From Malacoraja senta (taxonomy: Eukaryota), in assembly GCA_038087875.1 (NCBI GenBank), contig CM075993.1, positions 2,358,001 through 2,422,000 of the forward strand: a stretch of DNA of 64,000 bases. Direction: 5' to 3'. The notes beneath the pieces are model-generated. The model saw only the letters and a list, made by a program, of their open reading frames with translations. It was not told the origin of the DNA and did not search any database. Positions within the stretch are counted from its first letter, which is position 1; the number at the start of each line of letters is the position of its first letter. The translations under genes and the position numbers were made by a program. Below, piece after piece: positions 1,028-62,600 of this stretch.

Positions 1028-2299
1028 CAACCCGAAACGTTACCCATTCCTTCTCTCCAGAGATGCTGCCTTTCCTGCTGAGTTACTCCAGCTTTTTGTG
1101 TCTACCTTCGGTTTAAAGCAGCATCTGCAGTTCCTTCTTACATACAAGTAGGCATCTCTATGCTCCCCTTGCATAGTAAATATATGATTACAGATGGTTC
1201 TGTTTTGGAAGCAGATTGTAGAGCTGTGTCATAGGATAATATTGCTACATATGTGAAACAAATAAAACATAGTTTAATTTAAGGTGTCATCAATTGTATT
1301 TTTGGAATGGCCATCAAAATCATGTGTAAGAGAGAAATGATTACCCCTACTCTGAGTGCATAATTGCAAAACTCTTACACATTTAATATATGCTTGACTA
1401 TCATATTTCGCAAGCACAGTATTACTTCAATCAGAAGGGTAAAAGTCTCAAAATATTATTTTCAAAACTGAACTTTGTACATTTTCCACAGCTTTTCTTT
1501 TCCATATTTTCTCATCTGACAAGATTAACCTTCCAGCAGGCACACTGCATGAGAAGTTTACTGCAGTGGCCATTCTTCAAATGTAACGGAGTAGACAGGG
1601 TATTCAGTTTGTGCAACTGAACCTGGTCAGAGTGTAATCTGACATTTTTTAAAATTTATTTTGAGAGTTAAGTCAAAGGTATTTAATTGTCATATGTACC
1701 AACGATAGAACAATGAAATTCTTACTTGCAGCAGCTTAACAGTCACACAAACACGATACACACAGATAATATAATGTTTTAAAGTGAAATAACAGTAATA
1801 CTCATGCAAAAAAACCCAGTTCATAGTTGCTGAAGTTAGTTCTAGTTTATTATTGTCACATATAACAAGGTACAGTGAAAAGCTTTGTTTTGAATGTTAT
1901 CTAAACAGGTTAGATATACCATACATAGAAACAATCTTCCCGATGGTAGTAGCAAGCTGCGAGTTTGGCTAGGGTGATATGAGTCTTTGATGATATTGGC
2001 TGCCTTTTTGAGGCAGTGCCTCTTTAGGATGCTTTGATGGTGGGGATGTCAGTGGCTGTGATGGACTGGACAGTGTTTACCATTTGCTGTAATCTCCTTC
2101 ATTCCTGGGCGTTCGAGTTGCCCAAAGAGATCGTGATGCAACCAGTCAGTGCGCTCTCTGAACCGTACACCTGATGAGGTTCAATGGAGTATTTGTCGAC
2201 ATACTGAATATCTTCAATCTTCTAAGGAAGTAGAGGCATTGATGAGCTTTCTTTGTGATTGCATGTGTCATACTCAGTAGTGTTTGCAGATCTTTACAC

Positions 2300-6789: not shown

Positions 6790-7390
6790 CGAGTGCTAAT
6801 ACTTCTGAGTCGGCAAGGCCAGTTGTTTAAGCCGTGCTCGAAAGACTTAGTCACAACCTGTGGTGACACTTTAGTGCAGTTCTAACATGGTGCTGTACAA
6901 CTGGAGATGTTGCATTTCTAAAGAAACGTTAATCCAAGACCTTTATCTGGCCTCTCACAAGGAACCATTCAAGAAGAGCAGCTGTTCTTTCCAGACTAAC
7001 ATCTCAACTAGGATAGACACAAAAAGCTTGAGTAACTCAGCGGGACAGGCAGCATCTCTGGAGAGAATGAATGGGTGACGTTTCGGGTCAAGACCTTTCT
7101 TCAGGACTTCTTCTTGCATATGGTGTGCACAGCCTAAAGTTGTAAGACAACTTGTTATGTTTCATCTTGTTTGTGCACGCCAGGTTGATTGAATTCATCG
7201 AAACAGGGTGGACCACGTGAAGGTTACAATCTCCCACCCCTCTTCAGGACCATTGACAGATTATCTGCTCATTACCCATTGTCATATACAGTAACTTTGC
7301 TGTCATGTATGCAGCATTTGAGTACACTTGATGAAAACTCAAGTGGCTTTTTAACTAAACAATGAATGTAAATTCCTTCAAAATTACTTG
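6790..7390 (+). mobile_element. Old DeuSINE (SacSINE1-like) relic interrupted by younger insertions
   Basis: Degenerate Deu-domain-like GACACTTTAGTGCAGTTCTAACATGGTGCTGTACAACTGGAGATGTTGCATTT...GAAACGTTAATCCAAG. The 3' part resumes at ~7255 (ACAGATTATCTGCTCATT) after a Penelope piece and the ribozyme SINE. Confidence 0.5.
7108..7240 (-). mobile_element. HDV-like-ribozyme-headed short retroelement, copy 1
   Basis: 10-bp TSD TCTTCAGGAC (7098-7107 / 7241-7250). Starts GGGGTGGGAGATTGTAACCTTCACGTGGTCCACCCTGTTTCGATGAA and ends in a GAAGAA tail. Confidence 0.85.
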
Positions 7391-9259: not shown

Positions 9260-10440
9260 AAAAATCAAAGCTCTTTATCTGAATGCATGCAGCAATTACA
9301 AGATGGATGAATTAATAGCGGTACCGAGTAGCCAAAACAAAAATGTCCAAGGTTAGGTTTAAACATTCCAGGCAGCTCATCTAAGAGCAGAGACAGTCAA
9401 AATGGAAACGAAGGTTGGGTAGCATCGACATTCTTCTTCTTCTTTGGCCCTCTTCGCTGACCATGGGTGTCTCCAGGATTGGAGGATGCCAGTGCGTGAC
9501 TTTGTCTAACGTGGGGAGACTTGTGCAGACAGCCACCACAGTCCTTGACAGATCTGGGTCAGGATCCAGTGGCAAGGAGTCCAAGACGACCAGAGACCCT
9601 TTTCTGCTGCAGCCTTCACTCACCTTCCCAGCCGTTGTGACGCTCCACTAAGGTCAGTCATCATCCTCCGCCTGTTCCACCGTTGAGGTCAGAGTCCTCC
9701 CCCTCGACCTTACCGCCATGGGTGGCCCTACCAGGAGCATAGCTCCAGACGGCATCGCTCTCAGGTTCTCAGGACCACACAAGCTTTTCCACCACGACAA
9801 GGTGACAATCCACGGAGAAGACATTAAAGAATGAGATAAGGGTAGTCAAGAGAAAAGATCATAGCTCAGAAAAGTGGTAGATGCAGTTTACAAAGCTAAA
9901 AAAAACTTTGATGGGAGTTGTATATAGGTCTCAAGCAGTCCTAGCAATGCAGGGCGTAGTATAAATCAGCAAATTCCAGGCTCATGTAATATGGGTAATA
10001 CAAAAACCATCTTGGGCTTTAATCTACATACTGACTGGTCAAACCAAATGATCAGTAATAGTGATGAAGACAAACTAATTATGTACATAAGAGATGGTCA
10101 TCTAGATCAGTATATGAAGGATCCAACAGGAAAGCCTGTTTAAAATGTATTATTGTGGTGCGTGTAAGATTTAACTGATGATCTGGTAGTTAAGTGACCT
10201 TAAAGGAACACTGATCATTACATGACCTAATTATACTTGTAATTTTGGGTCAGTTAGAAACTCAGGACTCAGAATTTAATAAATAAATAAATAAAAGCAT
10301 GAGACACATGTATTGGAAAATACTTTAAAAGATATGTCAGTAAACATGCAATGAATAACATTTTTAAAATAGTTTACAAGCAATAGATATTTATATACAT
10401 TAACACAAAAAAATTCAACATGAAAAATAATTCTGCAAGT
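9260..10440 (+). mobile_element. Old CR1 LINE relic (endonuclease region); a degenerate RT 3' part lies at ~11880-12490
   Basis: CTCTTTATCTGAATGCA...AAGATGGATGAATTAATAGCG resembles the CR1 APE start (LYLNA...KxDELIA). Heavily decayed. Confidence 0.55.
9433..9819 (-). mobile_element. Non-autonomous RTE-like (Rex3/Expander-type 5' UTR) short element
   Basis: Flanked by GACATT duplication (9427-9432 / 9820-9825). 5' end TTCTCCGTGGATTGTCACCTTGTCGTGGTGG resembles RTE 5' UTRs. Has a (GAA)n tail and no RT ORF. Confidence 0.7.
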
Positions 10441-15132: not shown

Positions 15133-16154
15133 CTGAAAGCAAACCAGAACATGGTTAGTACAAATATATAAAAAACATATTCATTACATTTAAAGATTTA
15201 TCCCTTTAACATTTCAGTAGCTTCGTAAATGTTGTCAAACCACCTCCATTGCTCACTCCAGCAAACTGACAAAAGACTGGAAATTTTCCACAGTGTTACA
15301 TAGTATATCTACGTACACCTGTTTTCTGCTACACTGCACCCCTTCAAAATCCACCATTCACTGCCCACTCCAAAGTACACCAACTCATATCACATTGATT
15401 GGCCAGCAGGATCTGACAAACACTTCATGTAATTTTCCCATAACTCTCAAACCAGTCAGAATCATACACGCCATCTGTCCTCTTTACAGTACATTGAAAT
15501 TCTTATAATATTAATGAGTTGGGCATTTTAGACTAGTTACTGCACATTGCAGGTTGAGGCAAATTGAATATAATTTATGGACAAAGAATCCAAAATCTGT
15601 GCAAACAAAATTTTGGAATGCTGGCAGTGCCATTTTAAAAATCTTACTTTAAAATAAAATTGGAAGATGACAGCTTGGAGATGTGTGAATGGAAATTGTC
15701 ATAGCCCAGAGCCGCCCACAACACCAATACACACTCTCTCAATCCAATTCCAATTTGCAAATTGAGACAAATTGAGCAGCATAATCAAGGATGAGTCGTA
15801 CCCTGGCCACTCCCTCTTCTCCCCTCTCCCATCAGGTAAAAGGTACAGAAGTGTGGAAATGCACACCTCCAGAATTAGGGACAGTTTCTTCCCATGTAGA
15901 CACAAGATGCTGGAGTAACTCAGCGGGTCAGGCAGCATCTCTGGAGAGAATGAATCTCTCCAGAGATGCTGCCTGACCCGCTGAGTTACTCCAGCATTTT
16001 GTGTCTACCTTCAATTTAAACCAGCATCTGCAGTTCTTTCCTAGTTTCTTCCCAGATGTTATCAGGCAACTGAATCATCCTTCCACAACTAGAGAGCAGT
16101 TCTGAACTACTATCTACCTCTTTGGTGACCCTATCCTTGATCAGACTTTGCTGG

Positions 16155-17235: not shown

Positions 17236-17534
17236 ATGATCTATCTATCTATCTATGAGCTCCTCTATGATCTTTGGACAAGACATTGGTGAGGCAACCC
17301 TCTTCCTCTTCACAATACTAGAAATTGTTCAGCCAGAGCTCAACACACTTCTCGGCATCTGCATGCAATGGCGTTTTGGGCTTCTTGTGCTTTCCCCTAT
17401 CACCTTCAACCCATGTCCTCTGGTTCTTGATTTTGCCTACTAACTCTGGGTAAAAGATTCTGTGCATTTACCCTCTCCATTCCCCTCATGATCTTATGCA
17501 CCATAAGATTATCCCTCATTCTCCTGCACTCTAA

Positions 17535-20822: not shown

Positions 20823-21884
20823 AAATATGCGGGCTTACATGATAATTGGCCTCTGCAGATTGCAGGGGAGTGGATGAGAGAGTGGGAAAACATAGAACTA
20901 ATGTAAATGGTGATCAATGGTTGGCCTGGACTAGGTGAGCCAAAGGGCCTGTTTACATGCGGAATCTTGCAATCAGTCAAAACAAACATGCCGATTTATG
21001 ACCTGATGCAGAGCAGATTCGATGGACCGAATAGCCTCATTCTGCTCCTAGGTCTTATGGTCTTTGGACCTTATGATGCAGGAAGGTCATTGACGTAGCT
21101 GGTTGGACCAGGGTCACTGGGGCTGGGCTGGTTGACCACCGACAACCACAAAGAGCCACTTTGTTCTCACGAATCATAACAATTCCTCATGCTTCAGTAA
21201 TCCATCTATGACTTTTGTTTATTTTCATTGTTCTGCCTGAGAATGCATTGTATTCTAGTCTATTTCATTCACGACTGGATTTAAGTTTCACTTCACTTCA
21301 AGGAATCCTGCTCTATTGTGCCACCTGGAGTGAGATACGACTGGTAAACAACCCGGTGAATTAAACCTTGACATCTGTGTGTTCCTACCTTTCATATCCG
21401 CGTCTTTGCCTTATTACACAAGACATTACGTCCATCTTTTTTTCCTCACATATTTACTACTTATTTTACAGTGGCCTCTTAACTTACAATCCACATGTGA
21501 ATGGGATGTGGGAGGCAAACAAAGCATCAAGATGAAACCTCACATGGTCACAGGGAGTTTGTCCTGAGGTCAGGATTGAATGTCCATGCTAGAAAAGTCG
21601 AACAAAGGGCGGCATGGTGGTGCAGCAGTAGAGTTGCTGCCTTACAGCGCCAGAGACCTTGGTTCATTCCTGACTACGGGTGCTGTCTGCACGGAGTTTG
21701 TATGTTCTCCCCGTGACCGCATCGCTTTTCTCCAGGTGCTCCGGTTTCCTCCCGACTCCAAAGACATACAGGTTTGAAGGTTAATTGGCTTGGTTAAGTT
21801 GTAAATTGTCCCTTGTATGTGTAGGATAGTGTTAGTGTGCGGGGATCGCTGGTCGGCGCGGACTCGGTGGGCCGTATGGACTCT

Positions 21885-21938
21885 GGGGTGGAAGATTGCA
21901 ACCTTCATGTGGTCCGCCCTGTTTCGACGAATGCAATC
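21885..21938 (+). ncRNA. Predicted minimal HDV-like (CPEB3-type) self-cleaving ribozyme
   Basis: P1 GGGGTGG/CCGCCCT with a G1-U wobble, P2 GATTGCA/TGCAATC, P3 ACC/GGT, L3 TTCATGT (TTCACGT in the other copies), vestigial P4 GTTTCGA, and J4/2 CGAA with the candidate catalytic C at 21928. Confidence 0.8.
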
Positions 21939-22027
21939 AACCCGGCGTGCACAATCAAATAAGATCAAATAGAACAAGTTGTCCTACAACTTTAGGCTGT
22001 GCACGCCATACACAAGAAGAAGTAGAA
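21885..22027 (+). mobile_element. HDV-like-ribozyme-headed short retroelement, copy 2 (best preserved)
   Basis: TSD GGTGGGCCGT (21866-21875 / 22028-22037). Nine extra nt precede G1. Tail CAAGAAGAAGTAGAA. Confidence 0.85.
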
Positions 22028-25000
22028 GGTGGGCCGTGAGGCATGTTTCCATGCTGTATCTCTAATTTAATCTAAACTAAGCTAAACCTACTCATGACTT
22101 TCAGAGGCTTTATCAGCATCACCATCTTGGTGGTCATCAATGATCCAAACCTCAATTGGCCTAATCACATCATACTCACTGGTGAAAAGAGGCCGGTATT
22201 ACTAATGAACCCCTGATACCCCAAAGTCTTTCTGAAATATACAACGTGCGTGTCAAGAGTGGACTAATCTCCAAAGATACACAAGATCCTTGAAAACGCA
22301 GCCTGCTTGACCTGCAACCTATTCAATACACTGTACATTGCCTCCCTCCAGCAATGACAAACTTTGGCTGCAGTGTGCTGTGTCTATGAAATACATTGCA
22401 GTAACTCTACTAAGCTACTTAAGCAGAGTCAAGACCCCCTACCACCAAGAAGGATGAAGGCTTCAGGTGGATGGGAACATTTCCACCCATATTTTTTTAT
22501 CATATTGCAAAACCTCCACTGGCAGGTGCCAGCAATGGCTGCCTCGTCAACAGTCTGTCTGTCCCTTCCTGCTTTGTGTTTTAACAGTATGTGTTAAATG
22601 TATGTTTTTTATCTTGATTTATGTGGGGGAAGGCAGGTTTGGGGGAAACTTTCTAATCTCTTACATCGACAGAGATGCGATTTTTTCCCGTATCGTATCC
22701 GCCCGCACTGCGGCCTAACATCGGAGTTGGCGGCCACACGCACACACACACACACACACACCCAACTGTCTATTTCTTCATCAAAGAACTAAGATCAATC
22801 TTAGAATCAATATCAGTTTTATGTCTGCAACATGATACTTACATTAGTTTCTCTTTTGACTGTCTCGCATACAATAGTAATACAGAAAACTAACCAAAGT
22901 TGAATCCGGAACACATCAGGACCATAAACTAAAGTCCTGTGAAAAGAAATATAATTGTTACCTGCCACCAATATCAAAGACAAGAGCAGACACTTGAATG
23001 TAATACTGTCTTATTTAATCACCCTCCTATATTATAGACTACTTCATGACAAGGTTAAGTATAGGTGATTAGATGGTTTTCACTATGCCATTATAACAGG
23101 GTTATATCAGTATTAAGTTTAGTTCTTGTTGACTATGTAAAATAATCTCTCCTTGAACTAATATCAGGTAGTGCTCCTCTGTCTGAGGATAGTCAGAGGT
23201 CACCTTTTTTATTCATAGACCTCTTTATATAGCTTATATAACTTGCCACAATCGGCAGCTTTCTTTGACTTTCTGGGATTACTTTGAAACTTATCTTGTT
23301 AATATACTGCATTCTTAACATCTCCCTCAACTTCTATTTTACATTTTCTTTGGCCTTTCTAAATTTTTCTTCCGAAGTATTTGTGATCAGCTATAATTGC
23401 AAAATCCCAAAATGTTGTTCTGCTTCGAAAAATCTTTATCCTTTATTGTTCATAAATCCATCCATCCGTCTGGGTTAAACACATTAAATATTTAAAGAAA
23501 GAGATATATAAAGAGATACAGTAAGTAAGTAAGTAAGTTTATTGGCCAAGTATTCACATACAAGGAATTTGCCTTGGTGCTCCGCCCACAAGTAACAACA
23601 TGACATACAGTGACAGTTACGAATGACTCAGAAAACACTAAACATTAATAATAATAAGACATTAATGATAAAACACCATTGATCAAGCATGTGAACCAAC
23701 AAAATACCAGATCAAAGGGAGACTACTGATTTTTGGCTGTTCAGTAGAGCAACTACTCGTGGATAAAAGCTGTTTTTACAGCATGTAAGCAATGGCGTTT
23801 CCATTATCATTGTGTCTTTTTTGCATATCTTTCATTCATTGTTCTTTATCTCTCTACATCATCGTCTATATCTCTCCTTTCCTTTATCCCTAATCAGTCT
23901 GAGTCTTGACCTGAAATGTCACCCATTCCTTCTCTCCAGAGATGCTGCCTGACCCGCTGATTTACTCCAGCTTTTTGTGTCTATCTTCGATGTAAACAGA
24001 CCCTTTGGCCCAATGAGTCCATACTATCAACCACTCATTTGCAATAATCCCACTAATCTAATCTAACTTTATTCTCTTTTTTAAAAAAGGCACAAATTCC
24101 TGGAGTATCTCAGCAGGTCAAGCAGCATCTCTGGAGAACATGGGTAGGTGATTTTTCCAGTTAAGAACATTTCTTCAGACATACTATAATAAAAATAAGA
24201 CATAGGAGCAGAATTAGGCCATTCGGCCCATCGTCTACTCTGCCATTCATGGCTGATTTTTCCCTCTCTACAATATGATCTCCATATTGCTATCCATTCC
24301 CCCCAGATTCTACCACTCCCTACGCACTAGGGGCATTTACAGCAGCCAATTAACCTGCCATTCCACACATCTCTGTGATGTGGGGGAAACCAGAACACCC
24401 GGAGGAAACCCACGCGGTCACAGGGAGAACATGCAAATTCCGCACCTGAGGTCAGGATTAAACCTGGGTCCCTGGCCATAGGAGGCAGCAGCTCTACCAG
24501 CTGCACCACTGTGCTGCCAAGAACTATGTTGTACGACTGCAAAGGTAATTTCACTTGAGGTAATAAAGCAAATCAAAGAACAATTTGGTTAATAATGGTC
24601 TCCCTCAGGTATTTTGCAACTACACAACGATGTTAAGAATTGTTAAGAGAGCCGAAAATAGTAAACATGATAATAAAATTAGTAAAATACCAAAGTAACA
24701 AGGAAAATAATGTTTACAAAAAAAATTGTTTAAGTTTTCAATCTGTGAAAAAAGAGATGTATATATTTTTTTAAATACCAAGTATTTCATTCTGTGAAAC
24801 ACCAAATGTTATCATGCTTGTAAAATATTATACTGACATTTTTTCTCCACAGATTGTTGAATTTGTAATTAAAAAATGTTATTGTAACATGCAAAAATCT
24901 GATACGATTATTGGTATAATTATTGAGTGAATGTTCCATGTTTCAATTTAATTAAAGGGTGTCACAGAGTCACACAGCACGGAAATATGTCCTTCGGCTC

Positions 25001-33928: not shown

Positions 33929-35617
33929 CACAACGTGTTGAAATGTCCCCTTACGAGAAACCCTGAACTGGGTGTTATTGGGACCCGCAGAGACTGGGAT
34001 TTTGAGCAAAACACAAAGTGCCGGAGGAACTCGGCGATTCTGGCAGCGCCCGTGGTGGGAAATGGAGAGATGATGCTTGGGGTCGGGACCCTTCTCCAGA
34101 CTCACTTCAGAGTAAAAAGCTGGAAAAGAGAGGTCGTCGTCCCCCGTACACCATCAGTCTGAAGAAGGGTCCCTTCCATTTCCCTCCCCAGATGCTACCT
34201 GACCCGCTGAGTTCCACCAGCGCTTTGCGTTTTGCTTTGATATCAACGCAAAAATCGGCATGTAAAAAAATATTTCGACTGACGTCTCCCCTTGAATTTA
34301 TACGCATTATACGAATTATATGGTTAGGTAATCAACCTGGAGAAATATACACGGTGTTCTTGCCACCAGATCTCAATTTTAATCGTGTCGGCGAATCACA
34401 ATAGTTTTATTTTGTGTACAGGGTAAAATGATGCTTGTACTTTTAAAGTGTGTTCTAGAGTACATCGCCGGAATATTTGGAGCTGTTTTCAATTTCCCTT
34501 TTTCGCACACAGTTTTCGAACCTTGTACAGGTGGGGTCTCGATGCAAAGTAGGGGCTTAATACAATTTGCTGTCTTCCTGAATGCGTTTTCTGTTCGCTA
34601 ACTCGAGTGAACGAGAAGGGAAGGCTGTGGGGAGGGGGAGGTGAGAGGAAAAGGCGAAGTCCCAAGAGATGCTGGAATCTTGAGCCAAAACACTGGAGAA
34701 ATTCAGCGGGTCAGGTAGCATCTGTGGAGGAAATGGACCTATGATGTTTCTAGTTGGGTTTTTTAAACACACCGCCTAGAACAGTCCCTGTGGTCTGGTG
34801 GTCTCATAGTGTCAAGACTCTTAGTGTCATAAGTCGAGAGTGTTTTATTGTCATATGTCCCGAAACGGAACAATGAAATTCATACGAAGATAGACACAAT
34901 AAAAGCTGGAGTATCTCAGCGGGCCAGGGAGCATCTCTGGAGAGAAGGAACAGGTGATTTTTCGGGCCCGAAACGTCACCCATTCCTTCTCTCCAGAGAT
35001 GCTGCCTGACCCGCTGAGTTACTCCAGCTTTTCGTGTCTCATCTTCGGTTTAAACCAGCATCTGCCGTTCCTTCTTTCTCAATAGCCTCAATAGTTGCTG
35101 GGAAGAAACTGTGAGTTTGAACAGGCTTAAGTTCAGCAATCAAGCGTTCACAACTGATCACACTTTTCTCCACTGAAGAAGGGTCTCGACCCGAAACCTC
35201 ACCCATTTCCTTCGCTCCATAGATGCTGCCTCATCCGCTGAGTTTCTCCAGCATTTTTGTCTACCTACACTTTCTCCAAATGCGCAATTAAAGACAAAAT
35301 GGGGGGGGGGGGGGTGGGGGTGGAAGGGAGAGAAGGGTGGAGAAAAGAGGGGGGGGGGGGGGCGACAACTAGAAGCCAGAGAAACACGGCTGAGATGCTC
35401 GGCGGCGCATTACATGAACATTAACGTATGTTGACCGTTCGGTTGTTATCCTTGGTTCTGAAAACTCTCACTGGTAGTTGCGGCTACAGAGTACAATTAA
35501 TATCTGCTATTTGAACAGAGCCCATTTAATCTTCCACGCAGTTCAATAAGAAACGTTCCTCGCAGAACAGGGGGTCGGAAAGTTGCTCTCCATACTTGGG
35601 CATCTACTTGACGAAGG

Positions 35618-38138: not shown

Positions 38139-38260
38139 TTTTGAGACTAGACATAACATATTTTTTGCCTGTCACTTACGCTTTATCCTGGTAAATATAC
38201 TCGATTATCATAAGATTCAGCTGGTGTCGGGACATCCTCAATAGATCCAATAAATAAATA

Positions 38261-38393
38261 TTCTTCTTCTTCTTCTTGCGTATGGCGTGCACGGCCTAAA
38301 GTTGTTGGTCAACTTGTTCTATTTGATCTTGTTTGTGCACGTCGGGTTGATTGCATTAGTCGTGACCACGTGAAGGTTGCAATCTCCCACCCC
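38261..38393 (-). mobile_element. HDV-like-ribozyme-headed short retroelement, copy 3 (P1' strand deleted)
   Basis: TSD AATAAATAAATA (38249-38260 / 38394-38405). Starts GGGGTGGGAGATTGCAACCTTCACGTGGTC and has a (GAA)5 tail. Confidence 0.85.
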
Positions 38394-38754
38394 AATAAAT
38401 AAATAAAATCAATGGATATCGTGGTGTTATCCGCACTGCCAGGGGTGGTGCTGGAAGCTGATACCACACTGGCATTTAAAACGCCTTTAGGTATACACCT
38501 GGATGCACAGGAAATGGTGGGCTATAGAGGAGATTAGGTTACCTTGACATCATCTTCAGTGCAGGCTGTGGGCCAAATGACCAGTTCATGTATATTCTAC
38601 CTTCCATGTTAAATAATAATTCCATTGATACAATGCCATCTGAAATTATGAGAACATCAGTAATATCACAATTTAGAACTATGATCAGCAAAATATCAAA
38701 ATCAAAATCAAAACAATATTTTTTGTTTCTGCCATCTAATTCATATTTTATCTT

Positions 38755-39078: not shown

Positions 39079-40729
39079 TCATATTATATCTTATTATTTA
39101 CACATAACCCAGCACTGAGTTCTCACAAGTTCAATCTGATTACTAGTTATTGCAAACACAGTTAATAGTTTTTTTCACAATTTAGACCATGTTTATTTAG
39201 TTAAATTTAGAGATCCAGCGTGGAAACAGGCCCTTTGTCCCACTGAGTCCACGCTGGCCAGCGATCACCTATTCGCTACACGGGCTCTAAGTTTCACATC
39301 CACATCCTACACCCGAGGGGCAATTTTACCGAGGCCCATTCACCAACAAGCCTGCACGTCTTTGGAATGTGGGAGAAAACCGGAGCACCCTGAGATAACC
39401 CATGTGGTCACAGGGCGAACGTGCAAACTCTGCACAGGCGGCACCCGTGGTCAGGGTTGAACCGTTGTTTAAGAAGGAACTGCAGATGCTGGAAAATCGA
39501 AGGTAGACAAAAATGCTGGAGAAACTCAGCGGGTGCAGCAGCATCTATGGAGCGAAGGAATTAGGCAACGTTTGAAGAAGGGGTTCGGGCCGAAACGTTG
39601 CCTATTTCCTTCGCTCCATAGATGCTGCTGCACCCACTGAGTTTCTCTAGCATTTTTGTCTACCGTCACTGCAGGGTTGAACCCCTGGGTCTCTGCGCTG
39701 TGAGGCAGCAACCACACTGCTGCGCCACTAGGCTGTCCCCAGTTTCTGTTTGTTAAAGCATGCAAGCAGTTTAGGATATAGCTTTGGAATATGTTGCGAC
39801 AGCTCTTGGTGTGAACGTGTATCACTTTTTTTCAATCATGCTTTACCCAGCTGATTAATCTTGAATCACATGATTGTAAAGCTAGTCTGTGGTGTAATGA
39901 GTCACACACAATTTCAGTGTGGTACATTGCATCACCTCCTCTTCATGTTGTACCAACTGCAGGGTGTAGTGTGTGGGTAGCCCGCAATTTCTTTGATGTA
40001 AATGGGAAGCATGTTTAGTTCATTTATTCCCAACATGGGAATGGAAAGACTTCAGTGAAGCCTTCAGATTAATTACAGGAGCCAGACCTGTGTAAAGATA
40101 TATGTTTAAGAAGGAACTGCAGATGCGGGAGTTAGATGTGGCCCTTGTGGCTAAAGGGATCAGGGGGTATGGAGAGAAGGCAAGTACAGGATACTGAGTT
40201 GGATGATCAGCCATGATCATATTGAATGGCGGTGCAGGCTCGAAGGGCCGAATGGCCTACTCCTGCACCTATTTTCTATGTTTTTATGTGTCTATGCTGG
40301 AAAATCGAAGGTAGACAAAAAATGCTGGAGAAACTCAGCGGGTTGAGGCAGCATCTATGGAGCGAAGGAAATAGGCAACGTTTCGGGACGAACCCCTTCT
40401 TCAAACGTTGCCTATTTCCTTCGCTCCATAGATGCTGCTGCACCCGCTGAGTTCCACCAGCATTTTTGTCTACCTAAAGATATATGTTGCCACTTCATTG
40501 TGGTACTTCTCCTTATCGAGCCCACACACAAGATTAGAAGTTGTTCAGCCAGAGCTGAACACACTTCTCGGCATCTGCACAGTGCTTCTTGTGTGTGGTG
40601 GTGGAAAGATTGGTGGAAACAGGGCCGCGACGTGAACGCTCCTTCCTTGACCCCATTGTGGTACCGAGGGAGTGCTGCACAGTTGGACACAGACAGTATA
40701 TTCTCTCCCAGTGAATATTAAAGACCTTA

Positions 40730-59690: not shown

Positions 59691-62600
59691 TCAGGATCGA
59701 ACCCGGGTCTCTACTGCTGCTCCACTGTGCCCTTCCTACTTGCAGGGATACATTGCCTGCTTGTTGAAAAGATAAAGGAGGCAAAGGAAGAGATGACGGG
59801 CATTTAGTTCAGTTTAGTTTAGAGATAAAGCACGGAAACAGGCCCTTCGGCCCACCGAGTCTGCGCCGACCTGCGATCCCTGCACATTAAAACCACCCTA
59901 CAATACGATACAATACAGTTTATTGTCATTTGAACCTCAAATGAAGTGGGTTCGTATCCCACTTCTGACACCATGTAAATCACTTCAAACAGCATAAGAT
60001 TTACACACATCTTTAATCAACATATTAACTTGGCAGCATTACAAAACGAGGTGTCGTCAGTTCATCCTGGCTGCTTCAACTAACGGTGCTGGGAATGGGC
60101 GTTAGTATAAATGTTATAATGGGGTGGAGTTAGTGATGCTGGCTAAGTGTGATTGATTCACATGCATCATCAATCTACTGTCTTCATGGGATGGTGTGGG
60201 CGCTTAATGGCAGTGTTCAGGTCTTTGGGATTAATGCACAGGCGGATTTCACAAACGAAATTTGGTTTCTGCAGTCATACAACAAGAAAAACAAACCAAG
60301 ACACACAATGAACACAATTTACACAAACATCCATCACAGTGAATCTCCTCCTCACTGTGATGGAAGGCAAAGTCATTGTCTCTCCCCTGTTTTCCATTCT
60401 TCTCCCGATGTTAAAGCACACACTAGGGACAATTTTACATTCATACCAAGCCAATTAACTTACAAACCTCTACGTCTTTGGAATGTCGGAGGAACCACAG
60501 CACCCAGAGAAAACCTGGAGGTCACGGGGAGAACATACAAACTCCACACAGACAAGCACCCGTAGTCAGGATCGAACCCTGGTCTCTGGCGCTGTAAGGC
60601 AGCAACTCTCCTGCTGCCTTCCGTCAAGTCAAGTCAAGTCACATTTATTTATATAGCACATTTAAAAAACAACTCTCGTTGGCCAAACTGCTTTACATTT
60701 GAATTGGTCGCCGCTGCTCTCTCCTCAAATTGTGTTTCTTATTTTCTTTTGGTGCTTTTGAAATTGAATTCTGTCCTTGATTTGTGTACTGTGGTGTTTT
60801 TTTTTATTTAATTTATTCCGATTATGTGTTTTTTTGTTTTGTTGTGATTCTATGCATTGTAAGGTGTCCTTGGGTTTTAGAAAGGCGCCAGTAAATAAAA
60901 TGATTATTATTATTATTATATTATAATAGTATAAACAAACAAACTACATACATGTAGCCCTCGCTCAGAGGACGTCAAGAAAGGCTTGGGAGTACAGATG
61001 GGTTTTTAGTCTCGACTTAAAGGAGTCGATGGAGGGGGCAGTTCTGATGGGAAGAGGGATGCTGTTCCACAGTCTAGGAGCTGCAACCACAAAGGCGCGG
61101 TCGCCCCTGAGCGGCAACTTGTGCTGCATTTCAAGTTCAAGTTCAAGTTACATGTGTTGTCTCATGCACCAATTGGTACAGTGAGATTTGAGTTACCATA
61201 CAGCCATACGAATAGAAAGAGAACACAACACAAGTTGAACATAAACATCCCCCCACAGCAGAATCAGCGTTTCCCACTGTGAGGGAAGGCAATAAAGTCC
61301 AGTCATCTTCCTCATTGTTCACCCGTGGTCGCAGAATAATCAAAAAACACTGCTATCAAACTGATGAAAGTCAAAGTTATTGGCAAGGAGCATGGAGGCA
61401 ATTAACGGCGTGCGAGGACAGAGCCATTATTGGCTGCATAAAAGCCGGCATCCGGCCGCTAACTGTGGTTAATCATTGAACAATGTCAGGAGATAACACA
61501 GTCTGACGAAAGGTCATCTAATCCATTGTCCACACTCCCTCCAGATAATGGGAGTTTGCTGGTGGATTTAATCTCCTGAGCAAGGTGAACAACTCATTAA
61601 AATTTGCCATTCAGTGATGAGATGAAAAGAGATGAAGGGATCATGGACAGAGAAATGTGTAGGAAGGAACTGCAGATGCTGGTTTAAAGCGAAGATAGAC
61701 ACAAAATGCTGGAGTAACTCAGCGGGACAGGCAGCATCTCTGGAGAGAAGGAATGGGCGACGTTTCGGGTCGAGACCCTTCTTCAGACTGCAATTAGGAT
61801 TGTAATCATCGTTACTTTTTTGCATATCTTTCATTCATTGTTCTTTATCTCTCCACATCACCGTCTATATCTCTCATTTCCCTTATCTCTAACCAGTCTG
61901 AAGAAGGGTCTCGACTTGAAACGTTACCCATTCCTTCTCTCCAGAAATGCTGCCTGTCCCGCTGAGTTACTCCAGCTTTTTGTGAATATCTTCAGTTTAA
62001 ACCAGCATCTGCAGTTCCTTCCTACTATCTACCTCATTGGAGACTATCATTTATCGGACGCTATTTGCTTTATCTTGCACTAAACATTATTCTCTTATCA
62101 TGTATCTGTCCAGTGTGAATGGCTCGATCGTAATCATGTATTGTCTTTCCGCTGACTCGATAGCACGCAACAAAGGCTTTTCACTGTACCTCGGTACACG
62201 TGACAATAAACTAAAACTGAAACTAGAATCATAGAAACATAGACAATAGGTGCAGGAGTAGGCCATTCGGCCCTTCGAGCCAGCACCACCATTCAATATG
62301 ATCATGGCTGATCATCCAAAACCAGTACCCCGTTCCTGCTTTAGGTAGAATGGCAGTGCAGGTTCGAAGGGCCGAATGGCCTACTCCTGCACCTATTTTC
62401 TATGTTTCTATGTTTCTATGTTTCTCCCCATATCCCTTGATTCCCTTAGCTCTAAGAGCTAAATCTAAATCTAATTGGTCTCCACTGCCTTGTGTGGCAG
62501 GGAATTCCATAGATTCAGAGGGAAGTCTGTCCAAGTCAACCAGCAAGTTGAGAATATGGTGAATGCAGGGAAAATTTAAAGTTGAAATTGGTGAGTAAAA

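Follow-up and report, generated by a model that had tools for sequence, protein, structure and literature searches.

Predicted HDV-type self-cleavage and the 5' ends of a dispersed ~135-nt retroposon in Malacoraja senta

The window, namely the whole 64,000-nt stretch of Malacoraja senta contig CM075993.1 analysed here (positions 2,358,001 to 2,422,000), contains three copies of a short element, F1, which we take, with a probability of roughly 70%, to be a retroposon set free by a predicted ribozyme cleavage at its first nucleotide (G1) and reverse-transcribed by the protein of a LINE, most likely a Vingi-like one.

F1 is a ~135-nt non-coding element with an HDV/CPEB3-type fold without P4 at its 5' end. 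The head occupies positions 1-54 and includes a 7-bp P1 opening with a G1.U pair, a 7-bp P2, a 3-bp P3, an L3 loop with the majority sequence UUCACGU, a P1.1 represented by one C-G pair, 5 nt replacing P4, and a J4/2 strand reading CGAA or CUAA; the variable base of P1 is A or G, both of which pair with U. P1, P1.1 (a single pair), P2 and P3 stand in the correct order for the HDV-like nested double pseudoknot, the pairings having been read copy by copy in scripts. The J4/2 catalytic C is present in 96 of 108 copies and is the majority base in every subfamily, and its combination with the conserved U and G of L3, characteristic of HDV-like ribozymes, is found in the F1 majority and is missing from copy 1 of the window. 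The fully intact fold is retained in only 31 of the 108 copies, this set being unbiased with regard to the 5' end. A comparison of F1 with Rfam, the CPEB3 family (RF00622) included, gave no match.

Downstream of the head, the 3' body is predicted to form a long hairpin (z -4.3 for 21939-22020, with 1 of 200 shuffled sequences equally stable), as is the body of F2, another family present in the window (z -3.6). No Pol III A or B box was matched in F1 or F2 with simple patterns. F1 does not fall into the class of SINEs with tRNA, 5S or 7SL heads, since the ribozyme begins at nucleotide 1 and no box is matched; it possesses the features of a non-autonomous non-LTR retroposon, namely target site duplications (TSDs) of variable length (median 12 nt, n=160), an AAG tail that varies in length, a dispersed distribution and a size too small for a transposition protein. 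The genome holds thousands of copies, at least 2,073, which is the number of occurrences of the exact 31-nt head in 1.94 Gb (0 for the reversed control). A sample of 40 regularly spaced 10-kb stretches (400 kb in all) yielded a single copy, and the window is denser in F1 than average. Near-identical sequence was also detected in sequencing runs from several organisms.

Table 1 Ribozyme-headed elements of the window and their parts
Feature	Positions	Strand	Remarks
F1 copy 1, whole element including AAG tail	7108..7240	-	
Copy 1 ribozyme head	7187..7240	-	catalytic C to T at 7197, a CpG site; likely inactive
Copy 1 TSD, tail side	7098..7107	.	
Copy 1 TSD, head side	7241..7250	.	adjoins G1, zero overlap
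F3, RTE-type non-coding element, ~390 nt	9433..9820	-	C-start HDV-type head with long P4
F2, partial copy	near 17311-17390	-	
Copy 2 TSD, head side	21866..21875	.	partner 22028-22037
Copy 2 extra 9 nt, interval from TSD to G1	21876..21884	+	
F1 copy 2, whole element	21885..22027	+	host site is a tRNA-type SINE
Copy 2 ribozyme head	21885..21938	+	every pair intact
Copy 2 body	21944..22008	+	predicted long hairpin, ~10 bp closing, ahead of 3' end and AAG tail
F1 copy 3, whole element	38261..38393	-	CTAA subfamily, 9-nt deletion; likely inactive
Copy 3 TSD, head side	38392..38405	.	overlaps G1-G2 by 2 nt; partner 38247-38260
F2	40507..40654	-	head 40654-40603 without P4, hairpin body, AAG tail

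The three window copies differ in how well they preserve both the junction and the fold. In a preliminary description made from the letters of the window, the TSD was said to abut G1 directly in copies 1 and 3; this holds for copy 1 (minus strand, G1 at 7240, TSD of 10 nt) and not for copy 3 (minus strand, G1 at 38393), where the TSD takes in the first two G's, so that the junction can be placed only within G1-G3. The J4/2 strand of copy 1 reads TGAA, which bears out the reported loss of the catalytic C, and the view that this copy is probably dead is upheld: its ribozyme is likely inactive because a C-to-U change at the catalytic base abolishes cleavage in R2 heads lacking P4, as reported in PMC3774820. 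By its frequency (11 of 137 copies, vs 3-14 at other CpG C's) the change reads as ordinary CpG decay. The P2 mismatches also ascribed to copy 1 come down to two substitutions within one pair, which leave a single U.U mismatch (7226/7192). The ribozyme of copy 3 is likely dead too: its 9-nt deletion takes away the G of P1.1 together with most of P1's 3' strand. Its CTAA at J4/2 is a subfamily trait rather than damage.

Copy 2 (plus strand) is the only window copy with the catalytic C and all P1, P2, P3 and P1.1 pairs intact. Its TSD is followed by ATGGACTCT at 21876-21884 and then by G1 at 21885. These 9 nt are present as first described, and the suggestion that they are leader from a donor copy was ruled out, as no second exact match exists genome-wide: the leader together with the head has one exact match, copy 2 itself, and its seven one-mismatch matches have unrelated flanks. 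The insert has GGACTC in common with the target DNA just upstream, which makes local copying plausible.

Junctions were examined in a sample of 239 F1 matches, reduced to 226 by removal of duplicated flanks and to 223 without the window copies. Sets A (full-length query, 29 copies) and B (exact head, 88) are biased toward intact heads, whereas set C (106 copies found with 3'-body queries or incidentally) was chosen without regard to the 5' end; a TSD was called at a score of at least 8. The set C alignments start at G1 in 85 of 106 copies, at positions 2-4 in 13 and later in 8. A TSD was called in 79 of them, the other 27 having no callable one, and 61 of the 79 join at G1 with nothing added (57 as called and 4 by eye, where G1 has a substituted neighbour). 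Another 13 join at G1 with extra bases (one in 7 copies, two in 3 and three in 3); the rest are two copies starting at G2 or G3, two truncated ones and one spurious call. The peak at G1 foreseen in the preliminary description is therefore found in 61 of 79 copies, or 74 of 79 if 1-3 added bases are allowed. These junctions exceed chance: when the 5' flank of one copy was paired at random with the 3' flank of another, 118 of 4,500 pairings reached the score, 14 of them at -1..+2.

No sequence upstream of G1 is shared among the F1 copies, as had also been predicted, and the extra bases are heterogeneous. The 18 one-base extras comprise 11 T, 6 G and 1 C, and the longer ones are private to their copies, one repeating the adjoining TSD and another the first six bases of the element. 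Across all sets, 72 of the 164 TSDs are blunt and 57 overlap the first bases of the element. The base at -1 is T in 113 of 197 copies (30% in flanks; p = 7e-16). Opposite G1, the target carries G in 54 of 126 cases, compared with a flank value of 20% (p = 6e-9). Many junctions are ambiguous through microhomology with the target, and the earlier wording, in which the boundary coincides exactly with the predicted cleavage site, is too strong in view of the overlaps and of the T at -1, while the peak itself stands. The same junction pattern is reported in PMC3774820 for R2 elements cleaving at their 5' end, and by analogy with them we infer addition of a non-templated A to the cDNA end and priming by microhomology; a top-strand nick preference could contribute.

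The junctions of the other families were compared with those of F1. F2 has a 6-bp P1 and P2 and P3 pairs wholly unlike those of F1. In its window copy the TSD adjoins G1 with a 1-nt overlap; 22 of 29 F2 copies align from nucleotide 1, and the head junction is blunt or overlapping in 18 of the 21 copies with a called TSD. Against the Rfam CPEB3 family (RF00622) F2 scores 23.5-30.3 bits, below the gathering score of 35, and an unbroken run of 19 nt spanning P3-L3-P3-P1 matches the Rfam consensus. F3, used for comparison, has a 3' end matching a third RTE family (the RTE LINE in L234). Its 33 copies start at C1 in 10 cases and within five bases in 18, the rest starting later, partly as an artefact of a deleted reference. 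The fold pattern was unmatched in the F3 copies L282 and L258. A possible counter-example, an F3 head without the catalytic strand, was ruled out, P2' and the J4/2 C being located ~94 nt downstream. At L111, an F1 copy has inserted into an F3 copy within its ribozyme head, the target there being similar to F1's own 5' end.

Altogether the fold is found at the 5' end of seven families, namely F1, F2, F3, two Vingi-like LINEs (V and V2) and two RTE LINEs (RTE-A and RTE-B), with compensatory pairs: P2 differs throughout, P3 is A-U/C-G/C-G or G-C/C-G/G-C, P1.1 is C-G, U-A or G-C, and the J4/2 C is present in all. The heads of RTE-A, RTE-B and F3 start with C and have a reversed (G-C) P1.1, and the P4 of the RTE heads is 93-94 nt long. 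RTE-A (one full copy) and RTE-B (2 of 3 copies) join at C1. As far as can be judged from the families where the junction is checkable, the 5' boundary tracks the first base of P1, be it G or C, rather than a particular letter. RTE LINE heads were seen at L235 (-), L241, L244 and L413, and in L413 an RTE-B copy lies within a V ribozyme.

A sharp 5' end alone is insufficient to demonstrate cleavage, because the same peak is expected of every 135-nt RNA that starts at a fixed position. Cleavage as the reason for it is strengthened by the full catalytic fold being kept in seven families with a differing first base, and together with the G1 peak this supports the proposal, first made for the window copies, that the inserted cDNA is a copy of the self-cleaved 3' product, cleavage 5' of P1 nucleotide 1 being predicted from the sequence. 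A pile-up of starts at G1 was not among the features listed for 844 aligned reads of one polyA RNA-seq run, whose species may differ, and this counts against cleavage; 276 reads of that run continue past G1, strands pooled. At L054:1400-1700, the antisense depth of F1 in polyA RNA is ~1.4-2.2x the sense depth under the usual strand convention, an excess that could reflect cleavage or a few loci.

The preferred course of events would begin with read-through host transcription of F1, followed by self-cleavage 5' of G1; reverse transcription would then be target-primed at a T-Y/R nick, starting from the AAG tail. The enzyme would run off at G1 and frequently leave an extra A on the cDNA, seen as T at -1. 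The second strand would be joined through 1-2 nt of microhomology, in some cases together with a short insert copied from nearby, as would apply to copy 2. Occasional skips of the reverse transcriptase (RT) over the P3/P1 core would produce copies dead on arrival, and the inserted copies would afterwards undergo neutral CpG decay, as copy 1 probably did.

The partner of F1 is probably a Vingi-like LINE. V is a ~3.3-kb LINE with a single ORF containing Pfam APE and RT domains and without RNase H; its top homologues are ~1,000 aa long and likewise without RNase H, and those of the next tier have it. This compact layout, in which one ORF encodes APE and RT but lacks RNase H, agrees with the definition of Vingi given in PMC13708176, the label Vingi-like resting on domain content and not on an RT tree. 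The V head is of the G1.U type with a 40-nt P4, and G1 is in place by eye in 11 of 18 distinct heads. A TSD is visible for six heads: half of these join at G1, and the others comprise one with five extra bases, one in which T replaces G1 and one truncated head. The V and F1 heads are identical at 22 of 26 core nt, and their 3' ends read CAT(T)CGC(AAG)n and CAT(A)CGC(AAG)n, respectively. V2, a second Vingi-like family 65-68% identical to V (L442:1824 onward (+), L231), has a head with a G1-C pair and a U-A P1.1 and is represented by one duplicated copy. F1, as a candidate bipartite LINE derivative, matches V only in the core and the last bases, and a LINE with F1's own P1, P2 and body was not found among the LINEs sampled.

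Several V loci deserve separate mention. A full-length V with a broken ORF lies at L405:2814-6117 (+) and carries a 16-nt tandem duplication of its 5' end. V heads occur in L413-L432, and upstream of those in L420 and L431 lies element sequence in reverse complement, reminiscent of snap-back or inversion junctions. At ~1494-1625 (+) of L419 there is a natural derivative consisting of the V head plus tail with its own TSD, an illustration of how such short elements arise.

The same mechanism might operate with an RTE-clade enzyme, or with an element common to several clades, which we regard as rather unlikely; this concerns the partner alone and overlaps the preferred explanation. RTE-A has an AAG tail, the RTE-B head equals that of F1 at 19 of 21 nt and occupies the same position, and bipartite elements are known to arise from RTE (PMC5786205). 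The RTE heads nevertheless begin with C, pair G-C at P1.1 and have a P4 of 93-94 nt, in contrast to the G1.U and C-G P1.1 common to F1, F2 and V; the last bases of F1 match V and neither RTE-A nor RTE-B, and F3 demonstrates how an RTE passenger looks in this genome. TSD length and nick context did not separate the two candidate partners, the numbers being small.

A less probable explanation is that an internal promoter overlapping the ribozyme, similar to Pr77 of L1Tc/NARTc, fixes where transcription starts and thereby the 5' end, with cleavage being redundant or secondary. Thousands of dispersed copies need a source of transcription, and G accounts for a third (6/18) of the one-base extras. 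An extra G at a junction is also obtainable from a capped start. In the sister clade, Pr77 is both promoter and ribozyme (PMC3383444). Against such a promoter, neither an A nor a B box is matched, only 6 of 164 TSD-called junctions have an extra G, P1 nucleotide 1 is likewise the end of heads starting with C, and the catalytic C is retained both across the subfamilies and in seven families.

Slightly less probable still is that the pseudoknot sets the end passively, through 5' exonuclease trimming or protection up to P1, with stability or protein binding being selected instead of catalysis: this also predicts an end at P1 nucleotide 1 for any base, and in R2-based insertion the ribozyme fold raised efficiency with leaderless non-cleaving versions being intermediate, but the catalytic-C mutant was severely inhibitory in the same study (PMC11331408), and retention of the J4/2 C in seven divergent heads would be left unexplained.

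The pseudoknot core of F1 is a hot spot for deletions. Indels of at least 5 bases fall at positions 18-36 in 15 of 101 set C copies, vs 2 at 1-17 and 2 at 37-54, and their 3' edges cluster at 28-37 (12 of 101, as against 1 of 202 for the two bins that follow; p = 1e-5, with bins picked after the data had been seen). Divergence is no higher in deleted copies (0.026, n=11) than in intact ones (0.029, n=26). Alignment from G1 persists in 13 of the 15, and a single query batch supplied 11 of the 15. These observations fit skipping of the RT at the folded core after cleavage. The indels might otherwise come from DNA slippage between short repeats or have been enriched by host selection favouring dead copies. 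Differing small deletions and local duplications in the core are exemplified by L034, L035, L036, L050, L055 and L106.

F1 works like the R2 SIDEs and NARTc and is a very small form of a published strategy. The R2 and R2/R1 SIDEs of Drosophila are, like F1, non-coding and combine a 5' HDV-like ribozyme with a 3' part for the LINE protein, and the R2 SIDEs are reported to be joined to the target at the cleavage site on their 5' side, with non-templated additions, and to show compensatory changes relative to the LINE ribozyme (PMC3414825). They are specific to rDNA and larger (529 bp for R2Dwi_SIDE; PMC3414825), whereas F1 is ~135 nt long, dispersed in thousands, without P4, and has an AAG tail and ~12-nt TSDs. 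In trypanosomatids, NARTc/RIME, associated with L1Tc/ingi, are likewise dispersed non-autonomous passengers of an APE clade, Ingi being the sister clade of Vingi, and the HDV-like ribozyme of NARTc cleaves just 5' of +1, as predicted for F1 (PMC3383444). NARTc is 263 nt long, 97% identical to the first 77 nt of its LINE, and possesses P4, a poly(A) tail and a proven promoter (PMC3383444), while for F1 a near-identical LINE was not found among those sampled. Bipartite non-autonomous LINEs are known in the RTE, Ingi, Vingi and R2 clades and resemble F1 in having a LINE-type head and tail without a tRNA head (PMC5786205), but the body of F1 has no traced LINE source.

As to the ribozymes themselves, the mammalian CPEB3 ribozyme (RF00622) has the same L3 (UUCACGU) and the same spacing to the J4/2 C as F1; it is an intronic motif with a P4 stem, in contrast to the F1 and F2 heads. 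Minimal HDV-like and theta ribozymes of 52-54 nt lacking P4 are similar to these heads, but nearly 99% of them are reported to be phage-confined, and they are described as tied to tRNAs or of unknown function (PMC10879173), whereas here they head two retroposon families. Heads without P4 also occur in silkmoth R2, and R2 heads of this kind are active (PMC3774820). No description of the F1 family or of a Vingi ribozyme was found in the literature consulted, which excluded Repbase, patents, Ruminski 2011 and Kojima 2011.

Ribozyme-defined 5' ends and non-autonomous passengers have already been published for R2 and L1Tc. F1 provides a large natural sample in which the predicted HDV-type cut can be set against retroposon junctions in a genome of vertebrate scale, and Vingi-like LINEs are added to the clades bearing ribozymes. 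At 135 nt, F1 is a candidate for a minimal RNA template with which to supply the APE-type LINE enzymes used in gene writing, and thousands of intact heads, if inserted in the sense orientation, could cut host pre-mRNAs. It is a tentative and rather doubtful generalisation that P4-less HDV ribozymes head a whole class of vertebrate retroposons (~135-160 nt, ribozyme plus hairpin plus AAG, with F1 and F2 as two independent families) which ride Vingi-like LINEs and scatter thousands of self-cleaving sites, that an F2-like member could be the source of the mammalian CPEB3 ribozyme, and that the hot spot records the stumbling of the RT.

The insertion site of copy 1 is the end of a ~100-130-nt hairpin repeat which is very abundant in the window, often as inverted pairs producing long hairpins; examples are 7010-7106, 15907-15997, 34915-35019, 39526-39639 and 61656-62025, with sub-threshold Rfam miRNA matches.
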